From NCBI GenBank assembly GCA_964633285.1, contig CAZWGA010000001.1:60950-124949 (forward strand): a stretch of 64,000 bases of DNA, in the 5' to 3' direction. This DNA comes from an uncultured Solibacteraceae bacterium (lineage in GTDB: Bacteria; Acidobacteriota; Terriglobia; 20CM-2-55-15). The position numbers were made by a program, and so were the translations under genes. A model generated the notes under the pieces. The model searched no databases. It saw nothing but the letters and a program-made list of their open reading frames with translations, and was not told where the DNA came from. Positions 39,503 through 64,000 of this stretch are shown here, piece by piece. The first letter of the stretch is position 1. Every line of letters starts with the position of its first letter.

Positions 39503-40483
39503 GTGAAAACTTTTGATCAGTTCAAGATCGGCTTTGATACGAGAGACCGTCAAACGGTCCAGCGTTATTGGGACGAGATCTTTTCAACACAGAAATGGAC
39601 GGAAGGTAAGTTCACCAGGCTGTTTGAAGAAAAGTGGTCGGAATGGAACGGGGCTCCTGGAGTTGCGATGTCCAGTTGGGCCGGTGGTGCATTGACCGCC
39701 CTCGAATTCTTCAACCTTCGTGGAAAGAAAGTTTTGTGTCCTACGAATACGTTCATGGCCACACCATTTTCAGTTCTAAAAGTGGGTGGGGAGGTCGTTT
39801 TCGGCGACTGCAACAAAGAAGATTTGTGCCTCAGTTTGGACTCCGTAAGAAGGGCGGTTGAGGATCAAGGCGTGGCGGCGGTCTGGCTGGTTCATATCGG
39901 CGGCCACATCGCGTTCGATACTCCGAAGATCGCCGATTTCTGCCGGCAAAAAGGAGTGATCCTCCTGGAGGATTGCGCCCACGCGCATGGCGCGAAATGG
40001 CAGGGACGAAAAGCAGGAACCTGGGGTGACTGCGGCGTGTACTCGTTCTACGCCACGAAATCCATTTCGACCGGCGAGGGTGGAATGCTGGTATCCAACA
40101 ATCCTGCCCTGATTGAGTACGCTCAGCGATACAGGAACTACGGGAAGATGGATTACAAAGTCGAAGGGCTGAACTATCGGATGTCGGAATTCACTGCCGC
40201 CCTCGGTGTTGTTCAGATTGACCGGATGGAAGAAATTACAGCCTGGAAAAACATGATTGCCCGGGAATACCTGGATCCGAAATACAAACGCAGAGTCATT
40301 CTTCCGGACGGCATGACTTCAGGTTTCTACAAGTACATTGTCTTTGAACCCATTGAAAAATCCACGGGCAAGGTTTACGACACCCTGTGTCATTCGATTC
40401 TCGGCGCCCCCGGATCGTTCCCCAACTCGGAATGGGTCGCGCAAAATCACTGGTGTGTTCCTTTGTATTACAACCCGTCATAA
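39503..40483 (+). CDS. DegT/DnrJ/EryC1/StrS-family PLP-dependent sugar aminotransferase/dehydratase
   Basis: GTG start with GAGGG RBS. ..CAHAHGA.., ..SFYATKSISTGEGGML.. (PLP-Lys region). Confidence 0.8.
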   Translation: MKTFDQFKIGFDTRDRQTVQRYWDEIFSTQKWTEGKFTRLFEEKWSEWNGAPGVAMSSWAGGALTALEFFNLRGKKVLCPTNTFMATPFSVLKVGGEVVFGDCNKEDLCLSLDSVRRAVEDQGVAAVWLVHIGGHIAFDTPKIADFCRQKGVILLEDCAHAHGAKWQGRKAGTWGDCGVYSFYATKSISTGEGGMLVSNNPALIEYAQRYRNYGKMDYKVEGLNYRMSEFTAALGVVQIDRMEEITAWKNMIAREYLDPKYKRRVILPDGMTSGFYKYIVFEPIEKSTGKVYDTLCHSILGAPGSFPNSEWVAQNHWCVPLYYNPS

Positions 40484-40522
40484 GTTTTCATTCCAGCTAA
40501 CTAAAAAGGAGATTTCGATATC

Positions 40523-41503
40523 ATGAAAGCCCTCGTAACAGGAGGTTCCGGCTTTATCGGATCACACGTCGTCGACAAACTTCGCGACCGAGGTGTTCAA
40601 GTCCGAGTGTTCGACATGGTCATGCCGACATTCCGCACCGATATTGAGTTCTATCAAGGCAGTTTGCTCAGCCTGGAGCATCTGAGGATGGCGTTGAGCG
40701 GCATCGATATCATTTATCATCTCGCCGCCGTAGCAGACGTTAAGGATGTTTTTGAAGATCCACACTATGCCGAAAGCATCAATGTGCGGGGAACAATCAA
40801 TGTTCTTGAAGCTGCTCGAAAAGCCAAGATTCAGCGGTTGGTCTACGGAAGCACAACCTGGGTCTACAGCGAATGTACGGAAGAACTGGTGAACGAGACC
40901 ACAGCGCTTCGACCGCCGTCTCATCTCTACACGGCAACAAAGGTGGCTTCGGAATACTACTGTCTTTCTTACAGCAAACTCTATTCGCTGCCGGTGACGA
41001 TTCTTCGCTACGGCATTCCATACGGTCCCCGGGCTCGAGACGGCGCCGTGGTTCCCATTTTTATTCGAAAAGCGCTAAACGGTGAACCTCTCACGATTGC
41101 CGGCGATGGCTCGCAGTTTCGCAAGTTCGTCTATGTGGAAGATCTTGCGGAAGGCAACGTTCTGGCACTGAAACAAATCGCCGCGAACAAGACTTATAAC
41201 CTCGACGGAAGTGAAAAAGTCACGATTCGGCAAATTGCGGAGACCATCAAAGAGATCGTCGGAAACGTCGAGATTCAATATGTGGTCGGGCGGCCGGGTG
41301 ATTTTTCAGGTAAGGAGATATCGAGCGATTTGGCGCGGCGAGAGTTGGAGTGGCAGCCCAAAGTGAGTTTCAAAGACGGCGTACGAAAATATCTGAAGTG
41401 GTACAAAGATCGCGAAGATCGGAGAACTGCGGAATGGGAGCAACTGGATCAGAATCTGCGCGGCAATCGCGAGACGGACGGTAAAGCCCGGTCGGCCGGT
41501 TAA
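40523..41503 (+). CDS. NAD-dependent nucleotide-sugar epimerase/dehydratase (SDR extended family)
   Basis: MKALVTGGSGFIGSHVV.., YxxxK (YTATK). Confidence 0.85.
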   Translation: MKALVTGGSGFIGSHVVDKLRDRGVQVRVFDMVMPTFRTDIEFYQGSLLSLEHLRMALSGIDIIYHLAAVADVKDVFEDPHYAESINVRGTINVLEAARKAKIQRLVYGSTTWVYSECTEELVNETTALRPPSHLYTATKVASEYYCLSYSKLYSLPVTILRYGIPYGPRARDGAVVPIFIRKALNGEPLTIAGDGSQFRKFVYVEDLAEGNVLALKQIAANKTYNLDGSEKVTIRQIAETIKEIVGNVEIQYVVGRPGDFSGKEISSDLARRELEWQPKVSFKDGVRKYLKWYKDREDRRTAEWEQLDQNLRGNRETDGKARSAG

Positions 41504-41521
41504 GTCCCGTTTCCGCGATTA

Positions 41522-42241
41522 ATGAGAGTCACCATCCACCAACCGGAGCATTGGCCATGGTTGGGGTTTTTTGACAAGGCTCAGCGGGCGGACGTTCTGG
41601 TCATTCTGGACAACGTCCCATTTCGCAAGAACTACTTTCAGAATCGAAATCGAATTCGTTCGGCCGCCGGCGCTCAGTGGCTCACCGTCCCAGTCCTCAT
41701 CAGCGGTCACACGGGGCAGTTGATCAACGAGGTTGTCATCAACAATGCCGGGGAGCCGCATTGGCGGAAGAAACACTTCGTTGCACTACGACAAAACTAC
41801 GGTCGGGCGGAGTTCTGGAGAAGCCACGAGGACTTTATAGCGCAGCTCTATGAGCGTGAGTGGGCGCTCTTATCCGAACTGAACGTTCACATCGTTTCCT
41901 ATCTCTTGAAGTGCCTGAGCATCGAGACGGCTGTTGTCAGATCTTCGGAACTCGCGGTCAGCGGGACCAAATCCGAATTGCTGCTGGATGTATGCAAAAA
42001 GCTGGACGCGACGGAATATCTGTCGGGGATTTCCGGGCAGGAATACTTGAATCTGAAAGCGTTTGAAAATGCCGGTGTCGGAATCCAGTTTCAGGAGTTT
42101 CATCATCCCATCTATAAGCAATGCTATTCGCCCTTCGTTCCGTGCTTGTCTGTTCTTGACCTGCTTCTGAACCACGGTCCTGCATCGGGCGACATCATTA
42201 ATGGAATCGGTGTTGAAACCATCGACGAGGTGTTCAAATGA
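41522..42241 (+). CDS. WbqC-like family protein
   Basis: ..IHQPEHWPWLGFFDK.. characteristic WbqC N-terminus. Confidence 0.65.
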   Translation: MRVTIHQPEHWPWLGFFDKAQRADVLVILDNVPFRKNYFQNRNRIRSAAGAQWLTVPVLISGHTGQLINEVVINNAGEPHWRKKHFVALRQNYGRAEFWRSHEDFIAQLYEREWALLSELNVHIVSYLLKCLSIETAVVRSSELAVSGTKSELLLDVCKKLDATEYLSGISGQEYLNLKAFENAGVGIQFQEFHHPIYKQCYSPFVPCLSVLDLLLNHGPASGDIINGIGVETIDEVFK

Positions 42242-43119
42242 CGGCTGAACACGTGGTGGTCATCGCCGAAGTCGGCGAATGCTGGAATGGCGACTTTTCA
42301 TCGGCCGAAAGGTTGATAGATGTGGCCGCTTCAGCCGGTTGCGATTATGTGAAGTTTCAGACACTCGACAGGGAAGGTATAGCTGAAGACGATCCGGAGC
42401 GTGAATGGTTCCTGAAGATCGCTCTGGACGAACCGCAACTCCAGCGTCTGCGCCGGCGCGCCGCTGATGCAGGCATTCAGTTTCTGGCGACGCCGGAAAA
42501 GGCGCACAACGCGGATATCTTGAAAGCCATCGGTTGTGATGAAATCAAAATCGCTTCGTCCTGCCTCATCGATCGCGAATTGATCGAACGCGCGACCCTG
42601 TTCTCAACGGTCTTTTTATCGACAGGGCTCGCCACGCTTGATGAAGTGGATGCGGCTGTGGCAGGGCTTTCCCGCGTTGCCAATCTGTTTTTGCTGCATT
42701 GCATTGCGGAGTACCCGACAGGTCCTCTGTTGGAAGAACGCGGATTGGTTGCCCTGGATGACGAGGAAGTTCACATTTCTATGATGCGCGTTCTGGCCGA
42801 ACGCTACCCGCATGCCAGGGTGGGATATTCGGATCACACCTCCGGTCTCACAGCGCCCCTGGTCGCGGTTGCCGCCGGCGCAAAAGTGATCGAGAAGCAC
42901 ATCACTCTTGACCGCCGCACTCCCGTACAGAATTTCAAAAACGGCGGAGCTTATATGGGCACGGATCATGTGCTTTCCCTGGAACCGGATGAGCTTAAAG
43001 AAATGGTCCGTTCGATCCGCAAAGTCGAGAGAATGCTCGGCAACAAAGTCTGGGAACGATCGGCGGGCGAAAAAAAATTGCGCACCTTCCTGCGCGAACG
43101 TTTTCATCAGGCAAGCTGA
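42238..43119 (+). CDS. N-acylneuraminate-type (NeuB/PseI-like) nonulosonic acid synthase
   Basis: ..VIAEVGECWNGDFSSAERLIDVAASAGCDYVKFQT.. NeuB TIM-barrel. 293 aa (apparently no SAF domain). Confidence 0.75.
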   Translation: MTAEHVVVIAEVGECWNGDFSSAERLIDVAASAGCDYVKFQTLDREGIAEDDPEREWFLKIALDEPQLQRLRRRAADAGIQFLATPEKAHNADILKAIGCDEIKIASSCLIDRELIERATLFSTVFLSTGLATLDEVDAAVAGLSRVANLFLLHCIAEYPTGPLLEERGLVALDDEEVHISMMRVLAERYPHARVGYSDHTSGLTAPLVAVAAGAKVIEKHITLDRRTPVQNFKNGGAYMGTDHVLSLEPDELKEMVRSIRKVERMLGNKVWERSAGEKKLRTFLRERFHQAS

Positions 43120-43125
43120 TTTTAC

Positions 43126-44106
43126 ATGCGAACGATTCTTCTTTTTGCCGAGGCAGATTCAGAAATCGGATTTGGCCACCTCGGCGAGATTCGCGCCATC
43201 AGCCGGGCGCTGACCGCGCGAGACGATATTCGGACGCGCGTTTTCGCCGTTGGAACTCCGTGCGACACCGGCAGCGATATGGCTTGCGACTGGCTTACGG
43301 ATTCCACGGGCGTCATCCAGGTCATGAACTCGATCGAAGCTGACGCCACAGTGTGGAGCTTTCGGCGGCCACTGGCTCCGGGTGTATGGGAGGCCCTCGA
43401 GACTTCGTGCGCATTCAAGGTGTGGCTGGCGGACATGCCCGAACGGATTCCCCATGTGGATTTGTTCATCATGCCCACTCTGGTGAAGGAATGGCAGCGG
43501 CATCCGCATGAAGCAAAGAGTGCCTTGCTGGGTCCCAGCTATATGACGCTCGATCCGGTTTTTGAAGCCGAGCCTGAGCCAATCCATGGCCGTACCCGCG
43601 ATGTGTTACTCAGTCTGGGAGGAGCGGACCGATCGCACGCAACGCTTCGCGTCCTTCGTGCGTTGGAGGGACTCTCCGCAACAGTGGTCATCGGTCCGGG
43701 TTTCAATCACGATCAGGAAGTCAGGCGGCTTGCGAGTGCATTAAGAATCAATGTGGAGGAAAAGCCTTCGGGGTTGAGGCCGCTTCTGATCTGCCATCGA
43801 ATTGTGATTTCGGCCGGCGGAAACACGCTCTGTGAAGCCGCGGCTTCCGGCACTCCGGCACTTGTCGCATGGGAAGATCCTCACGAACGCGCCGCCGGCA
43901 CCGCTCTTGAAGAAGCAGGCGGGGCCCTTGTTCTCGGGCAAGGGATCGCTTTGCAGCCTGATAAAGTCAGAGAGGAAATCGATCGCGCGCTCCGGACGCC
44001 GGGCCTGTTGGATTCCATGGCTCGTGCTGGGCGAAGATTGATCGACGGCAAGGGAGCGCATCGAGTTGTCGATGCCATTCGTGAACGAATGATGGCGGCC
44101 GTTTGA
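43126..44106 (+). CDS. PseG-like UDP-sugar hydrolase (GT28 C-terminal-like; pseudaminic acid pathway)
   Basis: ..ADSEIGFGHLGEIRAISRAL.. N-terminus typical of PseG. C-terminal GT-B-like half. Confidence 0.6.
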   Translation: MRTILLFAEADSEIGFGHLGEIRAISRALTARDDIRTRVFAVGTPCDTGSDMACDWLTDSTGVIQVMNSIEADATVWSFRRPLAPGVWEALETSCAFKVWLADMPERIPHVDLFIMPTLVKEWQRHPHEAKSALLGPSYMTLDPVFEAEPEPIHGRTRDVLLSLGGADRSHATLRVLRALEGLSATVVIGPGFNHDQEVRRLASALRINVEEKPSGLRPLLICHRIVISAGGNTLCEAAASGTPALVAWEDPHERAAGTALEEAGGALVLGQGIALQPDKVREEIDRALRTPGLLDSMARAGRRLIDGKGAHRVVDAIRERMMAAV

Positions 44107-45161
44107 TTCCGCACTCCAAACCCAACATCCTCGAAGCGGACGTAGAGAAAGTTGCGTCCGTGGTGCGTTCACTTCACATCGCACAAGGGCAAGTCACCGA
44201 ACGGCTGGAACAGGAATGGTGCCGGCATACGGCTTCCACGGCAGCGGTCTGTGTCGGTTCCGGAGTTGCTGCCCTCCGTTTATCGTTGCTTGCGCTTGGA
44301 GTTGGGAAGGGCGATGAAGTCGTCGTTCCGGCGTATAGCTGCGTTGCGCTGCTCAACGCCGTTCTGGCTGTGGGGGCACAGCCTGTGCTTGCCGACGTTG
44401 AACTGGATACATGGGTCCTTTCCCGCGAGACCGTAGCCGCTGTTTCTACCATGCGCACGAAGGCCGTCATTGCCGTTCATCTCTTCGGATATCCGGCTCC
44501 GGTTCCCGGGATCACGGAACTGGGCGTTCCGGTCATCGAGGATTGTGCCCACGGTATCGGTGGAATGTATGACAAGCGTCCGTTTGGAAGCGCAGCCACG
44601 CTGAATGTGGCATCGTTTTACGCAACAAAAATGCTGGGTGGTGGCGAAGGCGGTATCGTCGGTTCCAGAGATCCCGGCCTGATCGCTTTTGTTAGAAACG
44701 CCCGCGGCTATGCGGATCAACTTCCGGATGGCCGGTATCTCAACGACAAGATGACGGACATGGAGGCATCTCTGGTTGAAAGCCAGTTAGCAAGATTGCC
44801 TGAGATTCTCCGCCGCCGTGATCAAACCGCTCAACGATACGCGGTATTCCTGGAGCCTCTTGAGAAACAAGGACTGATCAAATTGCCGCGCAATATCACC
44901 GGCCGAATCTGGTACCGATACGCAGTTCGGCTGGTTCATCATCAGTCGCATTTGCTTTCTTGCAGAATGCACGAATACGAAGTGTTTGCGGACCAACCGG
45001 TGTGGGATCTGAGATCCTCGCATTTCTGGTCAGACCGGCTCGTAAACTCCTCCACGGCATTTGAGCGGGTCATTTCCCTGCCGTTGTTTCCGGATCTCAG
45101 TGAAGCCGAACAGAAATTCGTATGCCATACTTTTGCGAACCTCCTTAACGCGACAAACTGA
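44103..45161 (+). CDS. DegT-family aminotransferase (PseC-like)
   Basis: ..KPNILEADVEKV..; ..DCAHGIG..; ..SFYATKMLGGGEGGIV... Confidence 0.75.
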   Translation: MIPHSKPNILEADVEKVASVVRSLHIAQGQVTERLEQEWCRHTASTAAVCVGSGVAALRLSLLALGVGKGDEVVVPAYSCVALLNAVLAVGAQPVLADVELDTWVLSRETVAAVSTMRTKAVIAVHLFGYPAPVPGITELGVPVIEDCAHGIGGMYDKRPFGSAATLNVASFYATKMLGGGEGGIVGSRDPGLIAFVRNARGYADQLPDGRYLNDKMTDMEASLVESQLARLPEILRRRDQTAQRYAVFLEPLEKQGLIKLPRNITGRIWYRYAVRLVHHQSHLLSCRMHEYEVFADQPVWDLRSSHFWSDRLVNSSTAFERVISLPLFPDLSEAEQKFVCHTFANLLNATN

Positions 45162-46297
45162 TGACACGCTTTCTAAAAGCAATGATGGATCGCCGCGAGC
45201 GCATCCTCCTTATGGATGCGATGAAACAGCACTGGATGTCGTTTGAGCACGACTACTTTTCGCTGAACCAGACGTTCGAGCAGATTCGATATTTCGTCAG
45301 GCGCGGCCACTTCTTTCGTCATTTGAAGGACCGTTTGTATTTTCGGATTTTCCCGAAGGTCAAAATCGTTCCGCCCTTTCCGACTCACGTCGAAGTCGAG
45401 ACTGCCAGCGCCTGCCAGATGCGTTGCCCCATGTGCTACACCACCTACATGGATGACGGGCTCAAGGGCGTCATGAAATGGGACCTTTACACCAGGGTCG
45501 TGGACGAATGCGCTGCGCGCGGTGTTTATTCCATCAAACTTTCCTGGCGTGGCGAGGCTTTGCTGAACAAGAACATCGTTCGAATGGTGAAGTATGCGAA
45601 GGACAAAGGCATTCCGGATGTCGCATTTCTTTCGAACGGCGAGCGCCTTACTCCGGAATTGTCCGATGAATTGATCGATGCCGGCCTGGACTGGATCAGC
45701 TTCAGCTTCGATGGTTTCAAGGAAACCTACGATGCGATTCGCGCACCTGCCAAGTTCGAGGAAACGATCGAACGCATCCGCGTGTTGCGCGAAAAACGTG
45801 ATGCGCGCGGATTGAGCAAGCCTTTGATTCGGGTGCAGTCGATATTCAGCGTGATCAAGCATGACCCGGATGGTTTTCGAAAGCTGTTCCACGGAGTTTC
45901 CGACAGCACGAACTTCATTACCGATCAGATTCGATCGTTCGAAGAAGGCCAGATCAACCACAATCCTTTTTATCAATGTCCAACTCCGTGGCAACGGATC
46001 GCTGTCGCTCATGATGGAAAGGTCCATCAGTGCATTTCGGATTACGCGGGGATGAACATTCTGGGAGATGTGAATCAGAAGTCCCTTTACAAAATCTGGC
46101 ACGATAAGCCTTTCCGCGAACTGAGAAAGTCCTTCAATCAATTCCGATATCTCGAGAATGCCGCATGCCGGATCTGTTCCGACGGAGCCGTGACGGAAAA
46201 AGTGAAGTTGCAAATCGACGGGCACGAGAGGGAAATATCCGCCTACAAGGGTATTCAAGCGAAGATCACTCCAGTGGGAAAACGGCCGCGCAAATAG
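45161..46297 (+). CDS. Radical SAM enzyme with C-terminal SPASM-like Cys cluster
   Basis: CxxxCxxC: ..ETASACQMRCPMCYT... C-terminal ..YQCPTPW..HQCISD..AACRICS... Paralog of 52203..53354. Confidence 0.75.
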   Translation: MTRFLKAMMDRRERILLMDAMKQHWMSFEHDYFSLNQTFEQIRYFVRRGHFFRHLKDRLYFRIFPKVKIVPPFPTHVEVETASACQMRCPMCYTTYMDDGLKGVMKWDLYTRVVDECAARGVYSIKLSWRGEALLNKNIVRMVKYAKDKGIPDVAFLSNGERLTPELSDELIDAGLDWISFSFDGFKETYDAIRAPAKFEETIERIRVLREKRDARGLSKPLIRVQSIFSVIKHDPDGFRKLFHGVSDSTNFITDQIRSFEEGQINHNPFYQCPTPWQRIAVAHDGKVHQCISDYAGMNILGDVNQKSLYKIWHDKPFRELRKSFNQFRYLENAACRICSDGAVTEKVKLQIDGHEREISAYKGIQAKITPVGKRPRK

Positions 46298-46963
46298 ATG
46301 AAGGTTCTCGTCATCTCAGCGCATATGGACGACGAGATTCTCGGCATGGGCGGCACCATTGCCAAGCACGTTGCCTCCGGAGACTCCGTCACCGTTTGTG
46401 TTGTGTGCAAGCGAGCGTACAACCACCAGTTCAATCCTGTAGTCGTTCAGGAGGAAAAAGACGCCTGCATTCGGGCATCGGAAGTGATCGGCTACAGCGA
46501 TGTGCGTTTTCTTGATTTGCGGGACGAACTCCTCGATGAGCGGTTGCTCGATGTGATTGTTCCTGTCGAAGAATGCGTCCAGGATGTCCGGCCGGACGTT
46601 GTGTATACACACCATCGAGGAGATTCAAATCAGGATCACCGCGCTGTTTTTCAGGCTTCGATGGTTGCGTGCCGCAGTCTTGCCGAACCCAAAGTCCCGC
46701 GTATTCTCGCGTATGAAGTTCCGTCTTCCACCGACATTGCACCTCCTTTTCCGGAGTACTCATTTCAACCCAACTATTATGTGAATGTTGCTCCCTATCT
46801 CGACCTGAAAGTGAAAGCGATGACTGCTTACATGCGCGAGTTGAAAAAGTTTCCCCATCCACGTTCGGCCAAAGGAATTCAAACGCTCGCCTGGAAACGC
46901 GGCATGGAAATCTCCTTTGAAGCGGCGGAAGCGTTTGTGGTCGTCCGCGACCAATGGGAATAG
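46298..46963 (+). CDS. PIG-L/LmbE-family N-acetyl-sugar deacetylase
   Basis: MKVLVISAHMDDEILGMGGTI.. ..HHRGDSNQDH... Confidence 0.8.
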   Translation: MKVLVISAHMDDEILGMGGTIAKHVASGDSVTVCVVCKRAYNHQFNPVVVQEEKDACIRASEVIGYSDVRFLDLRDELLDERLLDVIVPVEECVQDVRPDVVYTHHRGDSNQDHRAVFQASMVACRSLAEPKVPRILAYEVPSSTDIAPPFPEYSFQPNYYVNVAPYLDLKVKAMTAYMRELKKFPHPRSAKGIQTLAWKRGMEISFEAAEAFVVVRDQWE

Positions 46964-55850: not shown

Positions 55851-55868
55851 AATTTAGCGGAGGTTTTG

Positions 55869-57530
55869 ATGATCGATGCGAATCGAGACACAACGTTCTT
55901 CGAAGTAACCACAAAAGCGGTTCTGCCGCCTTTGCCGAAGGACCCCACTCCGAAGAATTTCAAGGTGCTTCTGGTTTACCCGAATTACTCGATGGTGAAC
56001 CTGCTGCCCACCAACATCGGCATTCTTACCGCCTGTTTGAAGCAGAACGGTTTTACGGTGGATTTATTTGACACGACGTTTTATCGAACATCCGAGCGAA
56101 CGCTCGATGAGATTCGCGTCGAGAATCTCCAGGTCCGCAAGTTCAATCTTGAAGAAGCCGGCGTACGATTCAAGACGACCAACTACGTCGACGATTTCAA
56201 AAAGAAAGTCGCAGCCTTCAAGCCCGATCTCATCGGTGTGACGACCGTCGAAGACACGTGGCCGCAAGGAAAAAAACTTATCGAAGCCGTCCGCGATTAT
56301 CCCGCGCCGGTGATCGTCGGCGGAGTGTTTCCGTCGCTGGCTCCCGAGTGCGTCATTGAACATCCCGATGTCGACATGATCTGTGTCGGCGAAGGCGAGT
56401 ATGCCCTCATCGAAGTCGCAACACGCCTGATGAATAACGAAGACTGCTCGACGATCCAGAATCTCTGGGTCAAGAAAGACGGCGAGATCCGCAAGAATCC
56501 GATGCGGCCGCCCATCAGCATGGACGAAGTACCGTTCGGCGATTTCGATCTTTTCGAAGTCGAACGCTTTTATCGTCCGATGCAGGGAAAGGTCGTTCGA
56601 ATGGCTCCCATCGAAACCGATCGCGGCTGTCCCTACAAATGCCGGTTCTGTGAAGCTCCGTCGCTGGTGGGCCTGTATCGGGAACAAACGGGTCAATATT
56701 ATTTCCGGCGGAAGAGCTGGACGAAGGTCCGGGAGGAAATCGATTTGTACCGGCGGAAATACAATGCGGAGTACATCTATTTCAATGCCGAAACTTTCCT
56801 GGCGATGAGCGAGGAAGAGTTCAAGGAATTCATTCGTGTGTATGAGAATGTCCGCCTTCCTTTCTGGATGCAGACTCGTATCGAGACGATCACGGAATCC
56901 AGAGTGAAGGAATTGGAACGGGTGAATTGCAATCGCATTTCATTCGGCCTGGAACACGGCAATGAAGAATTCCGGAAGAAGATCGTCGGGAAAGGTTTTG
57001 CAAACAGTCAGATCGTTTCCGTGTTTCAGATCATGGACCAGTATTCGATTCCGATCACGATCAACAACATTCTTGGATTTCCGGGCGAGACTCGAGATCT
57101 TGTCTTCGACACGATCGAGCTGAACCGGCAGCTCGGCACCGACAGCGTCAATGCATACGTATTCACGCCGTATCGGGGGACCGCCATGTACAACGACGCG
57201 GTGACGAAAGGTTATGTTGATCCGGACGCCGAGACGAATTCCATTATCACGGGATCGATTCTCGACATGCCGACCATCAGCAAAGACGAAATTCTGGGTC
57301 TTGTTCGCACATTCAGCCTTTATGTGAAGTTTCCGAAGGAAGAATGGCCCGACATTCGCAAGGCCGAAAAATTTACTCCCGAAGGAAACCGCAAGTTCGA
57401 AGAACTCTCAGCGCGTTATTACGAGAGGTTCTTCGATCACGATTTTAAATGGACCAAAAAGGCGTGCATTTCGACGCGCGTCTATGATGGTCCGGTGCGC
57501 AAACAAGTTACCGAAGACATCACGAATTAA
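55869..57530 (+). CDS. Cobalamin(B12)-binding-domain radical SAM enzyme (class B; putative C-methyltransferase or rearrangement enzyme)
   Basis: N-terminal B12-binding fold (..LLVYPNYSMVNLLPTNIGILTACLKQNGF.. ..DLIGVTT..). ..ETDRGCPYKCRFCEAP.. CxxxCxxC. GGAGG RBS before ATG 55869. Confidence 0.8.
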   Translation: MIDANRDTTFFEVTTKAVLPPLPKDPTPKNFKVLLVYPNYSMVNLLPTNIGILTACLKQNGFTVDLFDTTFYRTSERTLDEIRVENLQVRKFNLEEAGVRFKTTNYVDDFKKKVAAFKPDLIGVTTVEDTWPQGKKLIEAVRDYPAPVIVGGVFPSLAPECVIEHPDVDMICVGEGEYALIEVATRLMNNEDCSTIQNLWVKKDGEIRKNPMRPPISMDEVPFGDFDLFEVERFYRPMQGKVVRMAPIETDRGCPYKCRFCEAPSLVGLYREQTGQYYFRRKSWTKVREEIDLYRRKYNAEYIYFNAETFLAMSEEEFKEFIRVYENVRLPFWMQTRIETITESRVKELERVNCNRISFGLEHGNEEFRKKIVGKGFANSQIVSVFQIMDQYSIPITINNILGFPGETRDLVFDTIELNRQLGTDSVNAYVFTPYRGTAMYNDAVTKGYVDPDAETNSIITGSILDMPTISKDEILGLVRTFSLYVKFPKEEWPDIRKAEKFTPEGNRKFEELSARYYERFFDHDFKWTKKACISTRVYDGPVRKQVTEDITN

Positions 57531-57539: not shown

Positions 57540-58460
57540 ATGAAGGTAATCGTTTTTGGCGGAGCGGGCTTCCTGGGCAGCTTTGTCGCGGATGCTCTCA
57601 CGGAGCAAGGCCACGAAGTCATTATTTTCGACAAGCGGCCGTCGCCGTACCTGAAGGACGGCCAGACCGGTGTGATTGGTGATGTCCTGAACAAGCAGGA
57701 CGTTCTGAATGTGCTCGATGGGTGCGATGTTGTCTACAACTTTGCGGGTGTGGCGGACATTGCCACGGCATCTGAAAATCCCGCCGATACGCTGTACGTC
57801 AATGTCATGGGTAACACGGTGCTCCTGGAGAGCGCGCGTCAGAGAAATGTGAAGCGGTTTGTATTCGCGAGCACGCTTTATGTTTACAGTGAATCCGGTT
57901 CGTTCTACCGCGTCAGTAAGCAATCGTGCGAACTGGTCATTGAGGAATACTGGCGAGCGTTTAGTCTGCCCTATACGATTCTTCGCTACGGATCCTTATA
58001 CGGGCCGCGCGCCGACGATTCGAACTGGATACACCGCACTTTGAAGCAGGCTTTGATCGAAGGAAAGATTGTGAGATACGGCGACGGAGAAGAGATCCGC
58101 GAGTATATCCATGTTTCGGATGCGGCACGAAGCAGCGTCGAAGTTCTTGCCGATGAATACAAGAACTCCCACATCATCATCAGCGGCCAGCAATCGCTGA
58201 GGATTCGCGACATGCTCACCATGATCAGCGAGATGCTTGGGCACCGGGTCTCGGTGGAGTATCGTGTGCCCGAAAATGAGAATTGTTCGGGAGGCGGCAG
58301 TTTGCATTATCAAATTACGCCATATTCATTCCGCCCGAATATCGCCAGGAAACTCGTGCGCAGTTCTTATCTCGATCTGGGACAGGGCATGCTCAGCCTG
58401 ATTAACGAGATTTACCGCGAGAACGCCGATAAGATTCACTCGATGAGCGCCAACTCGTAA
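57540..58460 (+). CDS. NAD-dependent epimerase/dehydratase (SDR extended)
   Basis: [17 protein letters not shown].. YxxxK (YRVSK). Confidence 0.8.
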   Translation: MKVIVFGGAGFLGSFVADALTEQGHEVIIFDKRPSPYLKDGQTGVIGDVLNKQDVLNVLDGCDVVYNFAGVADIATASENPADTLYVNVMGNTVLLESARQRNVKRFVFASTLYVYSESGSFYRVSKQSCELVIEEYWRAFSLPYTILRYGSLYGPRADDSNWIHRTLKQALIEGKIVRYGDGEEIREYIHVSDAARSSVEVLADEYKNSHIIISGQQSLRIRDMLTMISEMLGHRVSVEYRVPENENCSGGGSLHYQITPYSFRPNIARKLVRSSYLDLGQGMLSLINEIYRENADKIHSMSANS

Positions 58461-58487: not shown

Positions 58488-59111
58488 TTGTTCCGATTTT
58501 TTTCACGAATCCGAAAAGAATTCTATTTGTGGATCGATGGAATCGCCGCACAACTGCCGGGCAATGCCGGAATTATCCTGCGGCGAATCTGGGTAGCGAA
58601 ACGCGTCGCGAAACTCGGCGCCGGAGCGACGATCGAAACCGGAACGTTTTTTCGATGCGGTAACAATATTTCGCTTGGCGAGTCCTTCACGTTGTTACGC
58701 GGATCGATTCTGGGCGCGTGTGATGGAAAATTGACGATCGGCGATCGCGTCTCCATCAATTCGGGCAGTGTTGTTGACGCATCGGCCGGGGGAAATATCA
58801 CCATTCACAACGATGCCTTGATTGGACCCAACGTTGTGATTCGCGCGAGCAATCATGCTTTCGATGCCGTGAACGTTCCCATGAATCGGCAAGGCCATAC
58901 CGGCGGCCGGATCATCATCGAAGAAGATGTGTGGATTGGCGCAAACGCCACTATTGTTCCCGGCGTGACCATTGGCGCGCACGCCGTTGTGGGCGCCGGT
59001 GCGGTTGTTACTCAAAATGTAGAACCGTGGACCATTGTAGGCGGTGTTCCCGCGAGGTTGATAAGAAACCGCCGGCCCGCCGCTTCCATCGTTGGTAATT
59101 CCGCTCTATGA
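58488..59111 (+). CDS. Hexapeptide-repeat acetyltransferase
   Basis: LbH repeats ..IGANATIVPGVTIGAHAVVGAGAVV... Confidence 0.7.
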   Translation: MFRFFSRIRKEFYLWIDGIAAQLPGNAGIILRRIWVAKRVAKLGAGATIETGTFFRCGNNISLGESFTLLRGSILGACDGKLTIGDRVSINSGSVVDASAGGNITIHNDALIGPNVVIRASNHAFDAVNVPMNRQGHTGGRIIIEEDVWIGANATIVPGVTIGAHAVVGAGAVVTQNVEPWTIVGGVPARLIRNRRPAASIVGNSAL

Positions 59112-61009
59112 GTTCCATCAGCATCGTTTCGCGTTCCCGGTGCGGCCGTCTCAATCCTGATTCAAAGGACACCGTGTGGATTTACGCGGGGACCGATTGC
59201 CTTTTCTATTGGAAAGTTTCGAATGGCGTGTTCAGGAACGTGAAGTGTGCGATCGAGCCGGGAGATTTCCAGACGTTCGTCACAAGGCAGCGCGCCGATT
59301 TTGTTCGCTGGTCCAACCGGCACGTATCGGCCTTCTCTGCACAGAACTGGCTTAGTGATCCCTTCGATAGAAATCCCGAGAACAATCTCTTTCTTTATTT
59401 CTGCTGGCTGGCATGGATTCAGGAATGGTTGGCGAATCATTCCAGCCGCCTCATTGTTGTCGTCGACGATTGCGCGATGGCGGCGGCTGTGGCCAGGCTT
59501 TCTCGAAGGAATCAAATCGATCTCGTAACCGATTACGGTGATCTTGTTTTCGATTGTGTGAAACGGCTGATGAGGGTCCTCGCTGTTTCGGGTTTTCGGC
59601 TCGTCGAATGGATTTACCGAAGTGTTCTTGCAAAAACAATACTGCGAGCGCCAACGCTATCTTCAAAGCCTGCGATTCTGATTACGACATATTTTCTGGG
59701 TAACGGTTGCATTGATTCCAACGGTGTCTTCAGGGATCGTTACCTGCCGGGGTTGCTGGAACTTTACGAACGCAATGGATTCGATGTCATCGTAGCGCCC
59801 ACGTTTTATGACATTCCGTTGAAGCATTTTCCACGAATCTACACCTTCATGGCACGTTCGAAAACGAAGTTTATCGTTGCCGAACAATTCGTTCCGGTCC
59901 GAGGCCAGATCGCCGCTCTGCTGTCGTGGTTGGCTCTGGTATGGCGAACGTTGATTCCCGGCGGTCCTTCGAGATTTATCCGGAATGAGGATCTGTACGG
60001 GACTGTTCGGGATCTGGCGCTCAGGAATACGCTCATCGCCTTTCCATTTCTCGTCAGTGGCCAGGTTCCCCGGTTCGCTGCAAAACGGGGCATGAAGCTG
60101 GAAGCGATGATTCAATGGTACGAGAATCAGCCGAAGGACAAGTATGTGCTGCTGAATTTTCGCCGGTGTTACCCAAACGCTATCAGCATCGCAGCGCAGA
60201 GTTACTGCATTTGCGGCAATTACCTCAGTTTGCCGATTACACGGGAAGAGCGAGCTGCCGGCATCGCGCCCGATCAGATTTGGATTCCCGGCGCTGCGAC
60301 GATGAAGATTCACGCCGCTTATGATGGAGAAGCGATTTCGAAGTATCGTCCGATGCCGGCACTGCGCTATCAACAGATATTTGAAACCGCGAGAAAGCGG
60401 CAGCATCAGAACAGCGGAGGAAAATTCACAATGACGATTTTGCTTCCGCATTCTGTGCCGGATTCGATTTACATGCTGTGGTGCGCCGCCGCCGCTATAA
60501 CTCACGTGCAGGAGCACGGCGGTGAAGTCCGAATCAAAACGCATCCTATTGTCACGATGCATGACATTCAACAAAGTGCGAATTCGAACGGAGTGAGGCT
60601 TGATGGGGCGATGAAGTGGGTGGATCTGCCGGTCGAGCAACTCCTCGTCGATACGGATTTGGTTCTGACCGGCGGGAGTTCCGCTGCGCTGGAAGCCGTT
60701 GCATGCGGTGTCCCGGCGCTGGTCGTCGGGTTCGTCGCCGGGTTGGATCTGAATCCTCTGGAAGCTGCGGACAAGAGGCTTTGGAGTCTCGTCTACGATC
60801 AGGAGCAAGCAGTCCGGGCAGTGCAGAGGTGGATGTCGGCAGATGCCATGCCGTCCAAAGAAAGGCTTGAGGTAGCGCGGGAGATTTTGAAAACTCACTT
60901 TGTCGAGTTACGCAACGAAGATGAAAAACTGTTTTGCCGCATGCTCGGGAATCATGCGATGACGGATGCCGGGAGTTCCAGTGTGAATCTGGTTCACGCG
61001 GCTAACTGA
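59108..61009 (+). CDS. Large hypothetical protein (633 aa), possible GT-B-like glycosyltransferase / capsule-polysaccharide synthesis protein
   Basis: C-terminal ..LVLTGGSSAALEAVACGVPALVV.. resembles a GT-B nucleotide-sugar-binding half. No confident family. Confidence 0.5.
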   Translation: MSSISIVSRSRCGRLNPDSKDTVWIYAGTDCLFYWKVSNGVFRNVKCAIEPGDFQTFVTRQRADFVRWSNRHVSAFSAQNWLSDPFDRNPENNLFLYFCWLAWIQEWLANHSSRLIVVVDDCAMAAAVARLSRRNQIDLVTDYGDLVFDCVKRLMRVLAVSGFRLVEWIYRSVLAKTILRAPTLSSKPAILITTYFLGNGCIDSNGVFRDRYLPGLLELYERNGFDVIVAPTFYDIPLKHFPRIYTFMARSKTKFIVAEQFVPVRGQIAALLSWLALVWRTLIPGGPSRFIRNEDLYGTVRDLALRNTLIAFPFLVSGQVPRFAAKRGMKLEAMIQWYENQPKDKYVLLNFRRCYPNAISIAAQSYCICGNYLSLPITREERAAGIAPDQIWIPGAATMKIHAAYDGEAISKYRPMPALRYQQIFETARKRQHQNSGGKFTMTILLPHSVPDSIYMLWCAAAAITHVQEHGGEVRIKTHPIVTMHDIQQSANSNGVRLDGAMKWVDLPVEQLLVDTDLVLTGGSSAALEAVACGVPALVVGFVAGLDLNPLEAADKRLWSLVYDQEQAVRAVQRWMSADAMPSKERLEVAREILKTHFVELRNEDEKLFCRMLGNHAMTDAGSSSVNLVHAAN

Positions 61010-61022
61010 GGAAAGATCGACA

Positions 61023-62429
61023 ATGGGTAAATGGGCTTCTCCTTTCAAGACAGTAGGCGGCATCGGCTCCGCCGGCGGTGGTGTGCCGCACATCCTGAAC
61101 GCGACTCAACGTGTGCACGCCGTCATCGCGGGTGCATTGTTCTACGCGGTCGGCAATTTCGGATTCTTGAACATTTTCGGAATTCGCCGCGAAGCGCAAG
61201 CGGTGTTGTTTGTGCTGTTGATCCTGCTGCTTCCGAGGTTGTCCGGTGTTGGCAGAGTCCGACGCGAGCCGTTGTTGTACCTGACTCTTGTTTTCTTTAT
61301 GGCGCGGCTATTTTTGCGGGACTGGACGATTATCGATATTTTCGATTCGCTGACATCCATAGGGATCATTATCGTGATTTTCGGAATCGACATGAGAAAG
61401 AGCGAGGCCATCTTAAGGATGGTCATCTTGTTCTCGGCCGTATTCTCCACGATGGTGATTGTTCAGGCGGTCATTATCTGGTTCAATCCTTCGTTGATTG
61501 CGTTTGTCAACTACCGTCCGTACTCCTCGATGTCTTCCGACGATCTCATTCAACTCCAGCACCCCATTGAGTATCTGGGATTTACGACAGGAGACTACAT
61601 ACGTGTGCTCGGGCGAGACTTCGTCCGTTTCAATAGCTTTGCTTCCGAACCCTCGGTTCTCATTTATTCATTCCTTGTGCCTGGCATACTTGCTCTGACT
61701 TTCAAAAACCATCTCGTCCGGCTCCTGAGTATTCCGATTCTGTTCTTTGCCGTCGTTCTCGCTGCAGCCGGCACGGCCTGGTTGTCCCTCGCGGTAGGGA
61801 TGGCGGTGTTTCCGTTCTTCTATCTCTTCAAAAACAGACCCCGCTTTCTTCATTTCCTTCCGTACATTGCTATTGCGCTGTTTCTCTTTTTTGTGATTAA
61901 CGTGGACAGCCGGCAATTCATGGCCGACTTTGATACATTTTTCCAGTCCTTTTCGGAGATTCACTCGGACCCGTCGGAAAAATATAGTTCGGGGATCATA
62001 CGTATTGGCTCGATCAGGGATACTCTGGATCTCGTCCTCGAGTATCCGCTCGGAGTCCCATTCAGCATCGGGCGAATCGGCGGCTTGCTCCTGACAGCCG
62101 GATTTGACGGCGGTTTTCTGGGAGTCATTGTCTGTCTCATCCTGTCCTACAGAATGTTTCGTGTATTGACGGCAGCGGTTCTCGGGAGTTCCGGAATCAC
62201 TCGAATCGCCATGTCGCTCGTGTACGGAATCATGATTCAGGTACTCTGCTTTTCCGACTATGGCTGGACAACTTTCAGCGGAATCATGATGCTGGCTCTG
62301 CTTTTGACGCGAGCCGAATACCTCGTCGCGCGGAATGAGTGGGAAATGTCTCGCGGGCCTGTCTTCCGTCCAGTGCCTGTGCCGGTTGCAGTCTCTGCCG
62401 ATCCGGCTTATTTGATCGAGCAACGATGA
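61023..62429 (+). CDS. Polytopic membrane protein, Wzy/O-antigen-ligase-like candidate polymerase
   Basis: More than 10 TM helices and a large loop. Lower GC than its neighbours. Placed with the flippase and sugar genes. Confidence 0.5.
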   Translation: MGKWASPFKTVGGIGSAGGGVPHILNATQRVHAVIAGALFYAVGNFGFLNIFGIRREAQAVLFVLLILLLPRLSGVGRVRREPLLYLTLVFFMARLFLRDWTIIDIFDSLTSIGIIIVIFGIDMRKSEAILRMVILFSAVFSTMVIVQAVIIWFNPSLIAFVNYRPYSSMSSDDLIQLQHPIEYLGFTTGDYIRVLGRDFVRFNSFASEPSVLIYSFLVPGILALTFKNHLVRLLSIPILFFAVVLAAAGTAWLSLAVGMAVFPFFYLFKNRPRFLHFLPYIAIALFLFFVINVDSRQFMADFDTFFQSFSEIHSDPSEKYSSGIIRIGSIRDTLDLVLEYPLGVPFSIGRIGGLLLTAGFDGGFLGVIVCLILSYRMFRVLTAAVLGSSGITRIAMSLVYGIMIQVLCFSDYGWTTFSGIMMLALLLTRAEYLVARNEWEMSRGPVFRPVPVPVAVSADPAYLIEQR

Positions 62430-63202
62430 AAGTCGTCATCCTGTGCGGCGGAATGGGCACGCGGCTTCGCGAAGAGACCGAATTGCGGCCGAAGCCGATG
62501 CTCGAAATCGGCGGCATGCCGATCCTCTGGCACATCATGAAAACGTACAGCCGGCATGGCTTCAGAGAGTTTGTGCTGTGTCTCGGTTACAAAGGCGAGG
62601 TGATCAAGGATTTTTTTTATCACTATGAAATGCTCGCCAACGATTTCACAATCGAGCTGGGACCCCGCAACATCGAAATCATTCCTCGTCACACGGAATC
62701 CGGTTGGAAAATCACTTTGGCAGATACGGGCCCGAACTCCATGACGGGCGCGCGCGTGAAGCGGATCGAAAAATACATTAACGATGAAACGTTTCTCCTG
62801 ACGTACGGGGACGGCGTCACGGATCTCGATGTCTCGCGAGTGCTCGACTTTCACCGTGAACATGGAAAGATCGGCACCGTCACCGGCGTTCGGCCCCCAT
62901 CACGATACGGAGAGCTCTCTATTCACGGGGATGAGGTCACAGCGTTCGATGAAAAGCCCGTGAACCCTCATGACAACGTGATCAGTGGAGGTTACTTCAT
63001 CTTCAATCGCAACATTTTCGGGTATCTGAGTGACGATGACGATTGTGTTCTTGAAAAAGAGCCGCTCGAACGGCTGGCTGCCGATAACGAACTGAAGGTC
63101 TACCACCACGATGGTTTTTGGCAGTGCATGGATACTTACCGCGATTACCGCTACCTGAACGAGCTCTGGGACAAGAACAAAGCTCCCTGGAAAACTTGGT
63201 AA
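62426..63202 (+). CDS. rfbF: Glucose-1-phosphate cytidylyltransferase
   Basis: [38 protein letters not shown].. ATG 62426 overlaps the upstream stop (ATGA). Confidence 0.85.
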
Positions 63203-64000
63203 CCGACAGTCCCTGGCAAAATAAAAACGTTTTCATTACCGGCTGTACAGGTCTGCTTGGATCGCATCTGACGCGCCGCTTGTGTGATGCCGGAGCCAAC
63301 GTTGTCGGGTTGATCCGCGACTGGCTGCCGGAAGCCGAGTTGATTCGCGCCGGAACGCTATCGAAGATGCGAGTCGTTCGTGGAGCTGTTGAAGACTACA
63401 GTCTTCTGGAAAGAGTCGTCAACGAATACGAAGTCGGACACGTTTTTCATCTGGCTGCGCAGACGATTGTGGGGATCGCCAACAACAATCCGCTTTCAAC
63501 TTTTGAAACGAATGTCAAGGGCACATGGAATCTGCTGGAGGCGTGCAGGCGGAATGGAGTGAAAGGCGTCATTGTTGCGTCGAGCGATAAGGCGTATGGC
63601 GCTCACGAGCAATTGCCGTATATGGAGAACGCCCCGCTCAAAGGAACGCACCCCTACGATGTTTCGAAGAGTTGCGCCGACCTCATTTCGCAGGCGTATC
63701 ACGAGACCTATGGCCTTCCGGTGTGCGTAAGCCGCTGCGGAAATTTGTTTGGAGGCGGCGATCTCAATTTCAACAGGCTGATTCCCGGTACTATCCGGTC
63801 CGTTATCTTCAACGAGCGGCCGGTGATTCGCAGCGACGGCAAATTTATTCGCGACTACATCTACGTTGAAGACGCCGTGAATGCGCTTTTGCTTCTTTCT
63901 GAACGCATGACCGATTCGAAATTCCACGGAGAGGCATTCAATTTCAGCAATGAGATTCAACTTACTGCGATTGAGCTGGTCGATCGCATTCTGAAAATCA
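63196..64000 (+). CDS. rfbG: CDP-glucose 4,6-dehydratase (3'-truncated by the window end)
   Basis: (M)[24 protein letters not shown].. ..SSDKAYG.. (YxxxK). Open to the window end. TTG 63196 overlaps the rfbF stop. Confidence 0.65.

Follow-up and report, generated by a model that had tools for sequence, protein, structure and literature searches.

Gene clusters for legionaminic (Leg) and pseudaminic (Pse) acid, the LegBCHGIF and PseBCHGIF loci of Campylobacter, Helicobacter and Legionella, combine a dehydratase of the short-chain dehydrogenase/reductase (SDR) class with a DegT aminotransferase, an N-acyltransferase, a hydrolase, a NeuB synthase and a CTP_transf_3 cytidylyltransferase. We know of no characterized Leg or Pse pathway that uses a radical S-adenosylmethionine (radical SAM) enzyme. 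Radical SAM chemistry on carbohydrates has been established almost entirely in antibiotic pathways, with BtrN, DesII, AprD4, GenK and SpeY. The radical SAM oxidase BtrN pairs with the aminotransferase BtrS, and a PIG-L deacetylase, BtrD, occurs in the same pathway type. BtrN is a twitch-domain enzyme that oxidizes 2-deoxy-scyllo-inosamine, acting as a two-electron alcohol oxidase, and its auxiliary cluster has four cysteine ligands (PMC9012708). The locus described here lies in a stretch of 64,000 nucleotides (nt), hereafter the window, from an uncultured Solibacteraceae bacterium (assembly GCA_964633285.1, contig CAZWGA010000001.1, positions 60,950 to 124,949). At positions 39503-64000 of the window, 24 consecutive plus-strand genes, g1 to g24 of the open reading frame (ORF) listing, form a block of more than 24 kb in which the Leg/Pse families stand together with three radical SAM genes.

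This block is a real operon-like surface-polysaccharide cluster in which two separable nucleotide-sugar cassettes, cassette A (g1-g12) and cassette B (g14-g24), are joined; it is not one Pse pathway. Cassette A contains the families of the Leg and Pse loci named above. The locus is aptly described as two conserved, widespread cassettes for sugars linked to cytidine mono- or diphosphate (CMP or CDP), each with its own BtrN-like radical SAM enzyme, plus a B12-domain radical SAM enzyme, and this should replace the description of a Pse pathway with three radical SAM enzymes. Spacing between neighbors from g1 to g24 is at most 39 nt by ORF coordinates, and overlaps are frequent. Families were assigned with Pfam and NCBIfam profiles, the scores of NCBIfam equivalog models being judged against curated cutoffs; below, "x against y" gives a score and its cutoff. 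Every gene family named in the preliminary description of the window is present on the plus strand where that description had placed it, and it was right to describe a polysaccharide locus in which three radical SAM genes accompany a NeuB-type arm and a CDP-hexose arm. Two large proteins were missing from its gene list: g12, of the LIC12162 family, and g21, which is distantly related to it.

Twitch-type radical SAM enzymes of the two cassettes

All three radical SAM genes are intact, each keeping the CX3CX2C motif:

45161-46297, plus strand: g7, BtrN-like twitch-type radical SAM enzyme of cassette A (Pfam Radical_SAM and SPASM)
52203-53354, plus strand: g14, BtrN-like twitch-type radical SAM enzyme of cassette B (Pfam Radical_SAM and SPASM)
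55866-57530, plus strand: g18, class B (B12-binding) radical SAM enzyme (Pfam B12-binding, PF02310, 50.4 bits against 32.1; Radical_SAM, PF04055, 67.9 bits)

The motif cysteines are C85/C89/C92 in g7, invariant in the 24 sequences of its family alignment, and C121/C125/C128 in g14, invariant in the 21 sequences of its own. Both families have exactly four further invariant C-terminal cysteines with the spacing x17/x44/x2, namely C273/C291/C336/C339 in g7 and C314/C332/C377/C380 in g14. A profile search of the PDB places BtrN first for g7 (E 1.4e-15) and for g14 (E 3.1e-13), with core and auxiliary domain covered; in the printed alignments, C169/C187/C232/C235 of BtrN line up with all four of the g7 cysteines and with the last three of the four in g14. 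An AlphaFold2 model of g7 (pLDDT 85.9) has BtrN (4m7t) as its top Foldseek match in the PDB (E 3e-13, template modeling (TM) score 0.78 normalized to the target), and the matches after it, which include DesII, SpeY and EpeE, reach TM scores of at most 0.54. An hhalign comparison of the two families over 291 columns shows them to be homologous (probability 99.9%, E 2.6e-36), and they are sister families. A database protein identical to g7 begins seven codons later.

The four-cysteine motif and the BtrN match indicate that g7 and g14 are twitch-type small-molecule enzymes and not seven-cysteine SPASM maturases, and each is predicted to hold one fully cysteine-ligated auxiliary [4Fe-4S] cluster. 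These features bear on the notion, in our judgment highly improbable, that the radical SAM genes are a maturation unit for a cofactor or a ribosomally made peptide modified after translation (RiPP) that merely sits inside a polysaccharide locus. The Pfam assignment of g7 and g14 to Radical_SAM plus SPASM speaks for it, as do many partial NCBIfam matches to peptide or metalloenzyme maturases; those matches, however, all fall far below cutoff, the invariant C-terminal cysteines number four instead of the seven of SPASM, Pfam detects no PqqD or RiPP recognition element (RRE) domain, and sugar enzymes neighbor the radical SAM genes in about 160 related loci. With no gap between genes wider than 39 nt, a peptide precursor gene would have nowhere to fit, and the small-molecule assignment agrees with this and with the lack of an RRE domain. 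No curated NCBIfam cutoff is reached by g7, g14 or g18. All three most likely remodel sugars rather than peptides; the separate peptide-modification unit with a precursor gene, which the preliminary description had raised as an alternative, was not found, the radical SAM genes being part of sugar pathways. Its general reading, sugar tailoring by radical enzymes, is right.

Composition and distribution of the cassettes

Relatives of the locus were compared in two sets. The g7-type set consists of 81 loci, 31 of them at least 9 kb long, on metagenome contigs from a profile scan with the g7 family and compared by tblastn with all window proteins; the g14-type set holds 80 loci (L008-L087), 48 of at least 15 kb. 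Among the 31 longer g7-type loci, NeuB is found in 28, a g10-type cytidylyltransferase in 21 (median identity 62%), PIG-L in 21, a g2-type SDR in 16 (often at about 70% identity) and WbqC in 12, and homologs of g14-g24 are essentially absent. This pattern marks g7 as a radical SAM enzyme specific to the nonulosonic-acid cassette. The family most often identified directly downstream of g7 homologs is PIG-L (17 of 81; unlabeled ORFs follow in 32 and contig ends in 12). One soil-metagenome contig (L003) is syntenic for g2-g13, and its g7 homolog is 77% identical.

The g14-type loci look different. Within the 48 longer ones, homologs of g15 occur in 45 (median identity 63%), of g19 in 43, of g17 in 33, of g16 in 27, of g18 in 23 and of g23 in 17, whereas just 9 have NeuB and 2 have g7-like genes. 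The preliminary description had placed its three radical SAM enzymes in the making of one nonulosonic acid and/or dideoxyhexose glycan; of the three, only g7 is specifically tied to NeuB-type genes, g14 and g18 being part of a second cassette that mostly lacks NeuB. Unbiased clustering added recurrent partners without a counterpart in the window: a HAD phosphatase (26 loci), a HisC/CobD-like aminotransferase (22), a PseC-type DegT (17), an FkbM methyltransferase (17) and a cupin (11). A typical order begins with the 2-hydroxyacid dehydrogenase, the g19-type SDR, FkbM, the CMP-transferase, HisC, the B12 radical SAM enzyme and the twitch radical SAM enzyme, and then continues with a transferase of about 610-650 amino acids (aa), a family 2 glycosyltransferase (GT2), a glucose-1-phosphate cytidylyltransferase, a CDP-4,6-dehydratase, a cupin and an SDR. 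A CTP_transf_3 gene directly adjoins the radical SAM gene in 30 of 80 g14-type and 16 of 81 g7-type loci, which hints at CMP-linked substrates.

By profile scan, relatives of g14 are found in at least 165 GTDB species genomes of many phyla, the top match having 63% identity. Carriers occur in Terriglobia, Vicinamibacterales, Omnitrophota, Nitrospirae, Nitrospinae, Elusimicrobia and Planctomycetes, and further in cyanobacteria, Pelagibacteraceae, Rhodospirillales, Betaproteobacteria, Actinobacteria and Bacteroidota. Among cultured carriers are Polynucleobacter sp. AP-Ainpum-60-G11, Terasakiella sp. A23 and two cyanobacterial isolates, Phormidium sp. CCY1219 and Spirulina sp. CCNP1310. The g14-family gene is seen together with its cytidylyltransferase in Pelagibacteraceae (SAR11) single-cell genomes and in these two isolates (L053, L061, L080, L081, L086, L087; L026, L031). 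The order cassette A, Wzx, cassette B is repeated on a JGI contig (L168/L169), which makes this juxtaposition a conserved arrangement in the lineage. The abundance of radical SAM genes, earlier called unusual, is real in that the locus has three, but it is not peculiar to this genome: each cassette is widespread among environmental bacteria, and L168/L169 has four such genes. Two side observations concern these relatives: an additional B12-domain radical SAM enzyme of about 700 aa, which the window lacks, is found in close relatives of cassette A (L168, 12284-14386; L002, 12613-14715), and a NusG-like gene stands immediately upstream of the cluster in L168.

Besides g7, cassette A contains the following genes:

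39503-40483, plus strand: g1, short DegT aminotransferase, 326 aa (Pfam DegT 210.6 bits; PseC 139.3 against 423.5)
40523-41503, plus strand: g2, extended SDR of the nucleotide-sugar 4,6-dehydratase/epimerase type (Pfam Epimerase 191.7 bits)
41522-42241, plus strand: g3, WbqC-family protein (Pfam WbqC 243.6 bits)
42238-43119, plus strand: g4, short NeuB-family ulosonic acid synthase, 293 aa (Pfam NeuB 186.6 bits)
43126-44106, plus strand: g5, putative nucleotide-sugar hydrolase, weakly PseG-like (NCBIfam PseG E 9e-19, 68.1 bits against 153.55; no Pfam match)
44103-45161, plus strand: g6, full-length DegT aminotransferase (Pfam DegT 222.4 bits; PseC 185.1 against 423.5; LegC 150 against 420)
46298-46963, plus strand: g8, PIG-L/LmbE-family N-deacetylase (Pfam PIG-L 78.9 bits)
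46954-47667, plus strand: g9, class I SAM methyltransferase (Pfam Methyltransf_25/12/11)
47522-48283, plus strand: g10, CTP_transf_3 cytidylyltransferase of the CMP-sugar synthetase type (Pfam 94.1 bits; PseF 116.3 against 205.7)
48280-48849, plus strand: g11, left-handed beta-helix (hexapeptide) acyltransferase (Pfam Hexapep 69.8 bits; NeuD/PglB family 63.6 against 160.8)
48860-50665, plus strand: g12, LIC12162-family transferase (NCBIfam TIGR04331 457.6 bits against 225, positions 1-583 of 585)

A nonulosonic-acid-type pathway is the best reading of cassette A, whose homology to such pathways is real at the family level. The preliminary description had gone further and proposed a near-complete Pse-type pathway. 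Its family-level homology stands, and profile annotation did not reassign the NeuB, PseG and DegT homologs to unrelated pathways. Across g1-g24, however, all Pse and Leg equivalog models (PseB, PseC, PseG, PseI and PseF; LegB, LegC and LegI) score far below cutoff, and these curated NCBIfam cutoffs rule out a canonical Pse or Leg operon. Pfam finds no GNAT domain of the PseH type in g1-g24, where the hexapeptide proteins g11 and g20 are the only acyltransferases, and none of the 24 genes matches Epimerase_2 or NeuC, the families of a LegG/NeuC-type hydrolyzing 2-epimerase. For g2, the top NCBIfam models are dTDP-glucose 4,6-dehydratase (163.7 bits) and LegB (137.6 against 475), both below cutoff, and PseB scores 48.5 against 407.75; the RmlB and LegB models are thus ahead of the PseB model. 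The synthase g4 scores 199.3 against 399.65 with the NeuB equivalog and 144 against 340.25 with PseI, and Pfam detects no SAF domain in it. Short NeuB proteins lacking SAF are kept in the closest relatives (L003, 1858-2736; L002, 1932-2822; L168, 6674-7558), while NeuB in more distant g7-type loci is mostly about 350 aa long. The Pfam DegT match of g1 ends at profile position 251 of 360. Homologs of g1 with 64-67% identity are equally short (about 318 aa), which rules out a truncated pseudogene, and g1 represents a distinct short DegT subfamily. Because the CTP_transf_3 domain of g10 begins at residue 41, its actual start probably lies downstream of the called one.

Cassette A would produce a CMP-activated nonulosonic acid of the 5,7-diamino type by a route related to those of Leg and Pse. 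In the proposed order, the SDR dehydratase g2 would be followed by the DegT enzymes g1 and g6, the acyltransferase g11, the PseG-like hydrolase g5, the short NeuB g4 and the cytidylyltransferase g10, with remodeling by N-deacetylation (g8), WbqC (g3), methylation (g9) and the radical SAM enzyme g7. The stop of g6 overlaps the start of g7, and g8 directly follows g7. The LIC12162-family protein g12 is a putative glycosyltransferase for the cassette A sugar and may carry out its transfer; in L001-L003 and L168, g12-type genes have NeuB and CTP_transf_3 genes as neighbors.

A flippase gene, g13, separates this cassette from cassette B; this flippase and the genes of cassette B other than g14, g18 and g22 are the following:

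50662-52197, plus strand: g13, Wzx-like flippase between the cassettes (Pfam Polysacc_synt 38.5 bits against 28.2)
53364-54122, plus strand: g15, divergent CTP_transf_3 cytidylyltransferase (Pfam 44.3 bits; PseF 65.9 against 205.7)
54046-54867, plus strand: g16, classical SDR, FabG-like ketoreductase (Pfam adh_short_C2 187.9 bits)
54864-55850, plus strand: g17, D-2-hydroxyacid dehydrogenase, like phosphoglycerate dehydrogenase (PGDH) and glyoxylate reductase (Pfam 2-Hacid_dh_C 168.9 bits)
57540-58460, plus strand: g19, extended SDR of the epimerase/dehydratase/reductase type (Pfam Epimerase 153.9 bits)
58488-59111, plus strand: g20, hexapeptide acyltransferase (Pfam Hexapep 59.4 bits)
59108-61009, plus strand: g21, putative transferase, 633 aa (NCBIfam TIGR04326 47.7 bits, below the cutoff of 250)
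62339-63202, plus strand: g23, glucose-1-phosphate cytidylyltransferase (NCBIfam TIGR02623 354.4 bits against 300.25, passing the equivalog cutoff)
63196-64000, plus strand: g24, CDP-glucose 4,6-dehydratase-like SDR, partial at the window end (TIGR02622 top, 171 bits over 268 aa; full-length cutoff 278)

The actual start of g16 probably lies downstream of the called start, and that of g23 probably lies near residue 30. Fusions of CTP_transf_3 with a 2-hydroxyacid dehydrogenase occur in three relatives (L004, 8211-9965; L005, 12971-14842; L169, 8242-10008), suggesting that the cytidylyltransferase and dehydrogenase steps are coupled. The large protein g21 aligns with the LIC12162 family over about 210 C-terminal columns (hhalign probability 84%, E 7.8e-6) and is distantly related to this family and to LIC13510; in related cassette B loci, proteins of about 610-650 aa adjoin the radical SAM gene or stand a few genes away. 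Profile searches of the PDB with g12 and g21 returned nothing significant (E 0.1 or worse).

The stereotyped gene order of the relatives assigns the CDP-glucose arm g23/g24 to cassette B, and g23-type and g24-type genes go together in 10 of 11 cases among the g14-type loci (Fisher p 2e-8). As proposed earlier, this arm runs past the window, g24 being cut by its end. The dideoxyhexose suggested with it is not demonstrated: the window contains no RfbH (E1) C-3 dehydrase, with RfbH model scores of 84.5 and 90.2 against 423, and in relatives it is a cupin and an SDR, rather than RfbH, that extend the arm.

Cassette B (g14-g21 with g23/g24) would produce a second cytidine-nucleotide-linked sugar or sugar acid, for which it has a separate cytidylyltransferase, g15, and a separate large transferase, g21. 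A rather unlikely alternative is that it makes no ulosonic acid de novo. The cassette would then either (a) tailor a housekeeping acid of the 3-deoxy-D-manno-octulosonic (Kdo) or ketodeoxynononic (Kdn) type by oxidation followed by amination or reduction, or (b) supply a small CDP-activated phospho-acid or amino-alcohol substituent, similar to glycerate or serinol, for transfer by g21 as a phosphodiester. Route (a) has a precedent in KdnB/KdnA of Shewanella, which act in this way for Kdo8N. The absence of NeuB from 39 of the 48 longer g14-type loci is in keeping with this alternative, and the PGDH-like 2-hydroxyacid dehydrogenase, the HAD phosphatase and the HisC/CobD-like enzyme, which uses pyridoxal phosphate, are partners that typically act on phospho-substrates; the CTP_transf_3 fusions and a Glyphos_transf-like protein in one related locus point the same way. 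Yet g15 scores higher with PseF (65.9 bits) than with the KdsB models (41), the extended SDR g19 and the CDP-glucose genes point to hexose-level chemistry, g21 is distantly related to a family that accompanies NeuB and CMP-transferase genes, and neither (a) nor (b) explains the need for two radical SAM enzymes.

A proposed keto intermediate and the probable role of g18

The genes around g14 suggest a possible mechanism. Within the 80 g14-type loci, a g16-type SDR and a HisC-like aminotransferase occur together only once, with HisC alone in 21 loci, the SDR alone in 29 and neither in 29. The SDR and HisC are also the two labeled families most often found directly downstream of the g14-type gene (16 and 11 times). 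Their mutual exclusivity fits a ketone produced by the radical SAM enzyme and then either reduced or transaminated, which is the logic of BtrN and BtrS. Under this proposal, g7 and g14 would abstract hydrogen from a sugar C-H, turning an unactivated secondary alcohol into a ketone. A DegT enzyme would transaminate this ketone in cassette A, and the SDR g16 would re-reduce it in cassette B of this genome, with net epimerization, while in cassette B of other genomes a HisC-like enzyme would transaminate it, replacing the hydroxyl with an amino group.

Several points weigh against this account. Twitch and SPASM radical SAM enzymes also catalyze epimerization, decarboxylation and C-C bond formation, and the g7 model is just 17-18% identical to BtrN in the Foldseek alignment. 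The Fisher p of 9e-5 for the exclusivity of SDR and HisC is computed as though the loci were independent, which, being related by phylogeny, they are not, the 29 of 80 loci with neither partner include many on short contigs, and in the window the gene after g14 is g15, not g16. The Pse and Leg equivalog scores, all below cutoff, assign what cassette A makes to no particular stereochemical series. Cassette B lacks a recognizable ulosonic-acid synthase, and its PGDH-like dehydrogenase, together with the HAD phosphatases and HisC-like enzymes found elsewhere, would fit a small phospho-acid substituent as well.

Radical epimerases are known from antibiotic pathways, with NeoN, HygY and AviX12. In an unlikely alternative, g7 and g14 would be enzymes of this kind, inverting one stereocenter of the (CMP-)sugar directly by radical chemistry, releasing no ketone and leaving g16 and the aminotransferases to act elsewhere in the pathway. 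Their fold class and single auxiliary cluster are common to dehydrogenases and epimerases, the epimerase EpeE is among the fold matches of the g7 model, and known nonulosonic acid diversity is largely epimeric. The g14 family further has an extra invariant cysteine, C112, and a near-invariant one, C162, that could donate a hydrogen atom; the g7 family, by contrast, has no invariant cysteine beyond its seven cluster ligands. The closest sugar-acting structures, BtrN and SpeY, are both dehydrogenases, and mutually exclusive reductase and aminotransferase genes directly downstream of g14 homologs are more easily explained by a released ketone.

The third enzyme, g18, has its invariant CX3CX2C motif at C255/C259/C262. 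Its best sequence match in the PDB is QCMT/MgmA (9CCB, E 3e-15), and AprD4, TokK, OxsB and TsrM also match. The entry 9CCB is the B12-dependent methylase QCMT/MgmA (PMC12931638). The N-terminal domain of g18 matches the cobalamin domains of TokK, OxsB and TsrM, whereas AprD4 matches the radical SAM core only, and the folds nearest to its AlphaFold2 model (pLDDT 83.1) in Foldseek are TsrM, MgmA/QCMT, CysS, AprD4, TokK and OxsB. All NCBIfam matches stay at or below 104 bits against cutoffs of at least 251. The prior for its class, together with the likeness of its N-terminus to cobalamin domains, makes g18 a probable C-methyltransferase, and it would most likely add a methyl group to an unactivated carbon of a sugar, in the manner of GenK and Fom3. 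A weak PhpK-type match of g18 led us to consider a phosphonate pathway, which was rejected because no phosphoenolpyruvate (PEP) mutase is encoded among the 24 genes.

AprD4 and AprD3 carry out a deoxygenation in apramycin biosynthesis, and the substrate of AprD4 is an aminosugar. By analogy, g18 might be an AprD4-like, cobalamin-independent diol dehydratase that deoxygenates a sugar carbon with g19 as the reductase, which we consider improbable. The aminosugar substrate would suit such a role, AprD4 is the second-best PDB sequence match (E 2.6e-11), and its fold lies about as near to g18 (TM score 0.70) as those of the methylases (0.72), a near-tie that counts against a methylase. The adjacency of g18 and g19 is moreover repeated in L005, L054, L055, L072 and L169. 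AprD4 has a similar fold and no bound cobalamin (PMC12931638). Its sequence match to g18 is nonetheless limited to the radical SAM core (residues 248-454), while the N-terminal domain is matched by TokK, OxsB and TsrM with PF02310 above cutoff, and the NCBIfam AprD4 model scores 53.5 against 500, under several models of B12 enzymes.

What this analysis observes directly is the gene content and its assignment to families, the cluster motifs, the fold and the conserved synteny. The best overall explanation of them, to which we give about an even chance, is that of two cassettes with g7 and g14 as sugar oxidases and g18 as a C-methylase, its substrates, oxidase role and methylation being deduced from these data. 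A bolder and clearly less probable suggestion, offered tentatively, is that g7 and g14 represent a large new clade of BtrN-like oxidoreductases acting on CMP-linked surface-glycan sugars. With g18, they might yield undescribed sugars, for instance extra-aminated or epimerized ones, or C-methylated higher-carbon CMP-ulosonic acids of the kind known from Magnetospirillum.

Genomic setting, significance and comparison with known systems

Together, cassettes A and B and the CDP-glucose arm would form one long co-oriented glycan locus with the flippase g13 and the Wzy-like g22. The gene g22 and three genes of the same setting, upstream of the block, are listed here:

61023-62429, plus strand: g22, Wzy/O-antigen-ligase-like membrane protein (Pfam Wzy_C 31.1 bits, slightly below the cutoff of 31.7)
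within 31085-33783: CpsB/CapC-type phosphatase (plus strand), GDP-fucose-synthase-like SDR (fcl-like, minus strand) and GDP-mannose 4,6-dehydratase (gmd-like, minus strand)

The latter three genes indicate that the glycan genes begin about 8 kb before the block at 39503, and the housekeeping genes beyond them place the glycan region in an ordinary chromosomal setting. Two minus-strand ORFs lie between the gmd/fcl genes and the locus, at 35241-37349 (702 aa) and 37574-39214 (546 aa); neither has any Pfam or NCBIfam match, and their products may be export or chain-length proteins, or unrelated. By Pfam, no initiating phosphoglycosyltransferase gene (Bac_transf or Glycos_transf_4) is present within 39.5-64 kb, and no tRNA gene lies within the window. 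A scan found 5 promoter-like sites where 11 were expected and 24 terminator-like sites where 23 were expected, without enrichment of either inside the g1-g24 block.

Both sugar-activation cassettes are widespread but unstudied. The three radical SAM families are fixed parts of surface-glycan cassettes, the g14 family recurring in at least 165 species and the g7 family in dozens of metagenomic loci. Should the proposed roles be correct, environmental bacteria would commonly diversify their surface sugars by radical oxidation and methylation that need no oxygen, and the cassettes would offer candidate genes for orphan CMP-sugars now appearing in mass spectrometry. If the roles fail, the locus is still correctly annotated, yet it would be an ordinary variable glycan island. 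The gene sets are concrete and testable, with cultured carriers at hand, and interest would be high only if the predicted chemistry is confirmed.

Compared with Leg and Pse loci, the locus has no equivalog match, PseB- or PseH-type enzyme or LegG-type epimerase, and its NeuB lacks SAF; its additional components are the radical SAM enzymes, PIG-L, WbqC, a methyltransferase and the LIC12162-family transferase. The earlier statement that radical SAM chemistry is not established for Pse or Leg loci is borne out, in that no paper in the searched literature connects radical SAM enzymes with Pse, Leg or nonulosonic-acid loci, and none of the top-ranked results joins radical SAM with O-antigen or capsular polysaccharide.

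The BtrN/BtrS system of butirosin shares with g7 and g14 the twitch architecture, the spacing of the four auxiliary cysteines and the best sequence and fold match. Unlike BtrN, g7 and g14 have about 75-105 extra N-terminal residues, with an identity of about 17-18%, and their genomic setting is that of primary cell-surface glycan loci containing CMP-transferases instead of aminoglycoside clusters. The cobalamin radical SAM C-methyltransferases GenK, GenD1 and Fom3 resemble g18 in combining a B12-binding domain with a radical SAM core, in a context of sugar genes and a cytidylyltransferase. In contrast to them, g18 has no close sequence relative, and its methylation is predicted from its class. 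The families LIC12162 (TIGR04331) and LIC13510 (TIGR04326) of the Leptospira O-antigen regions, g12 being a member of the former and g21 a distant relative, are themselves uncharacterized, and in the searched literature LIC12162 is mentioned only in a genome description.

A parallel by gene description is the Leg-like cluster of Ca. Kuenenia stuttgartiensis, with legB, legF, legC, a deacetylase and then neuB, to which mass spectrometry has tied CMP-nonulosonic acids bearing a free amine, a formyl group or an addition of 14 Da (10.64898/2026.04.20.719630). It parallels the set g2, g10, g1, g8 and g4 of cassette A; the same preprint reports a formyltransferase and does not mention a radical SAM enzyme (10.64898/2026.04.20.719630). 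In Magnetospirillum, an orphan CMP-ulosonic acid longer by one carbon has been described, together with CMP-linked ions like those of N-acetylhexosamine (HexNAc) without a keto acid (10.64898/2026.04.20.719630). By analogy, CMP-sugars of the Kuenenia and Magnetospirillum types could be the kinds of products that such cassettes make.

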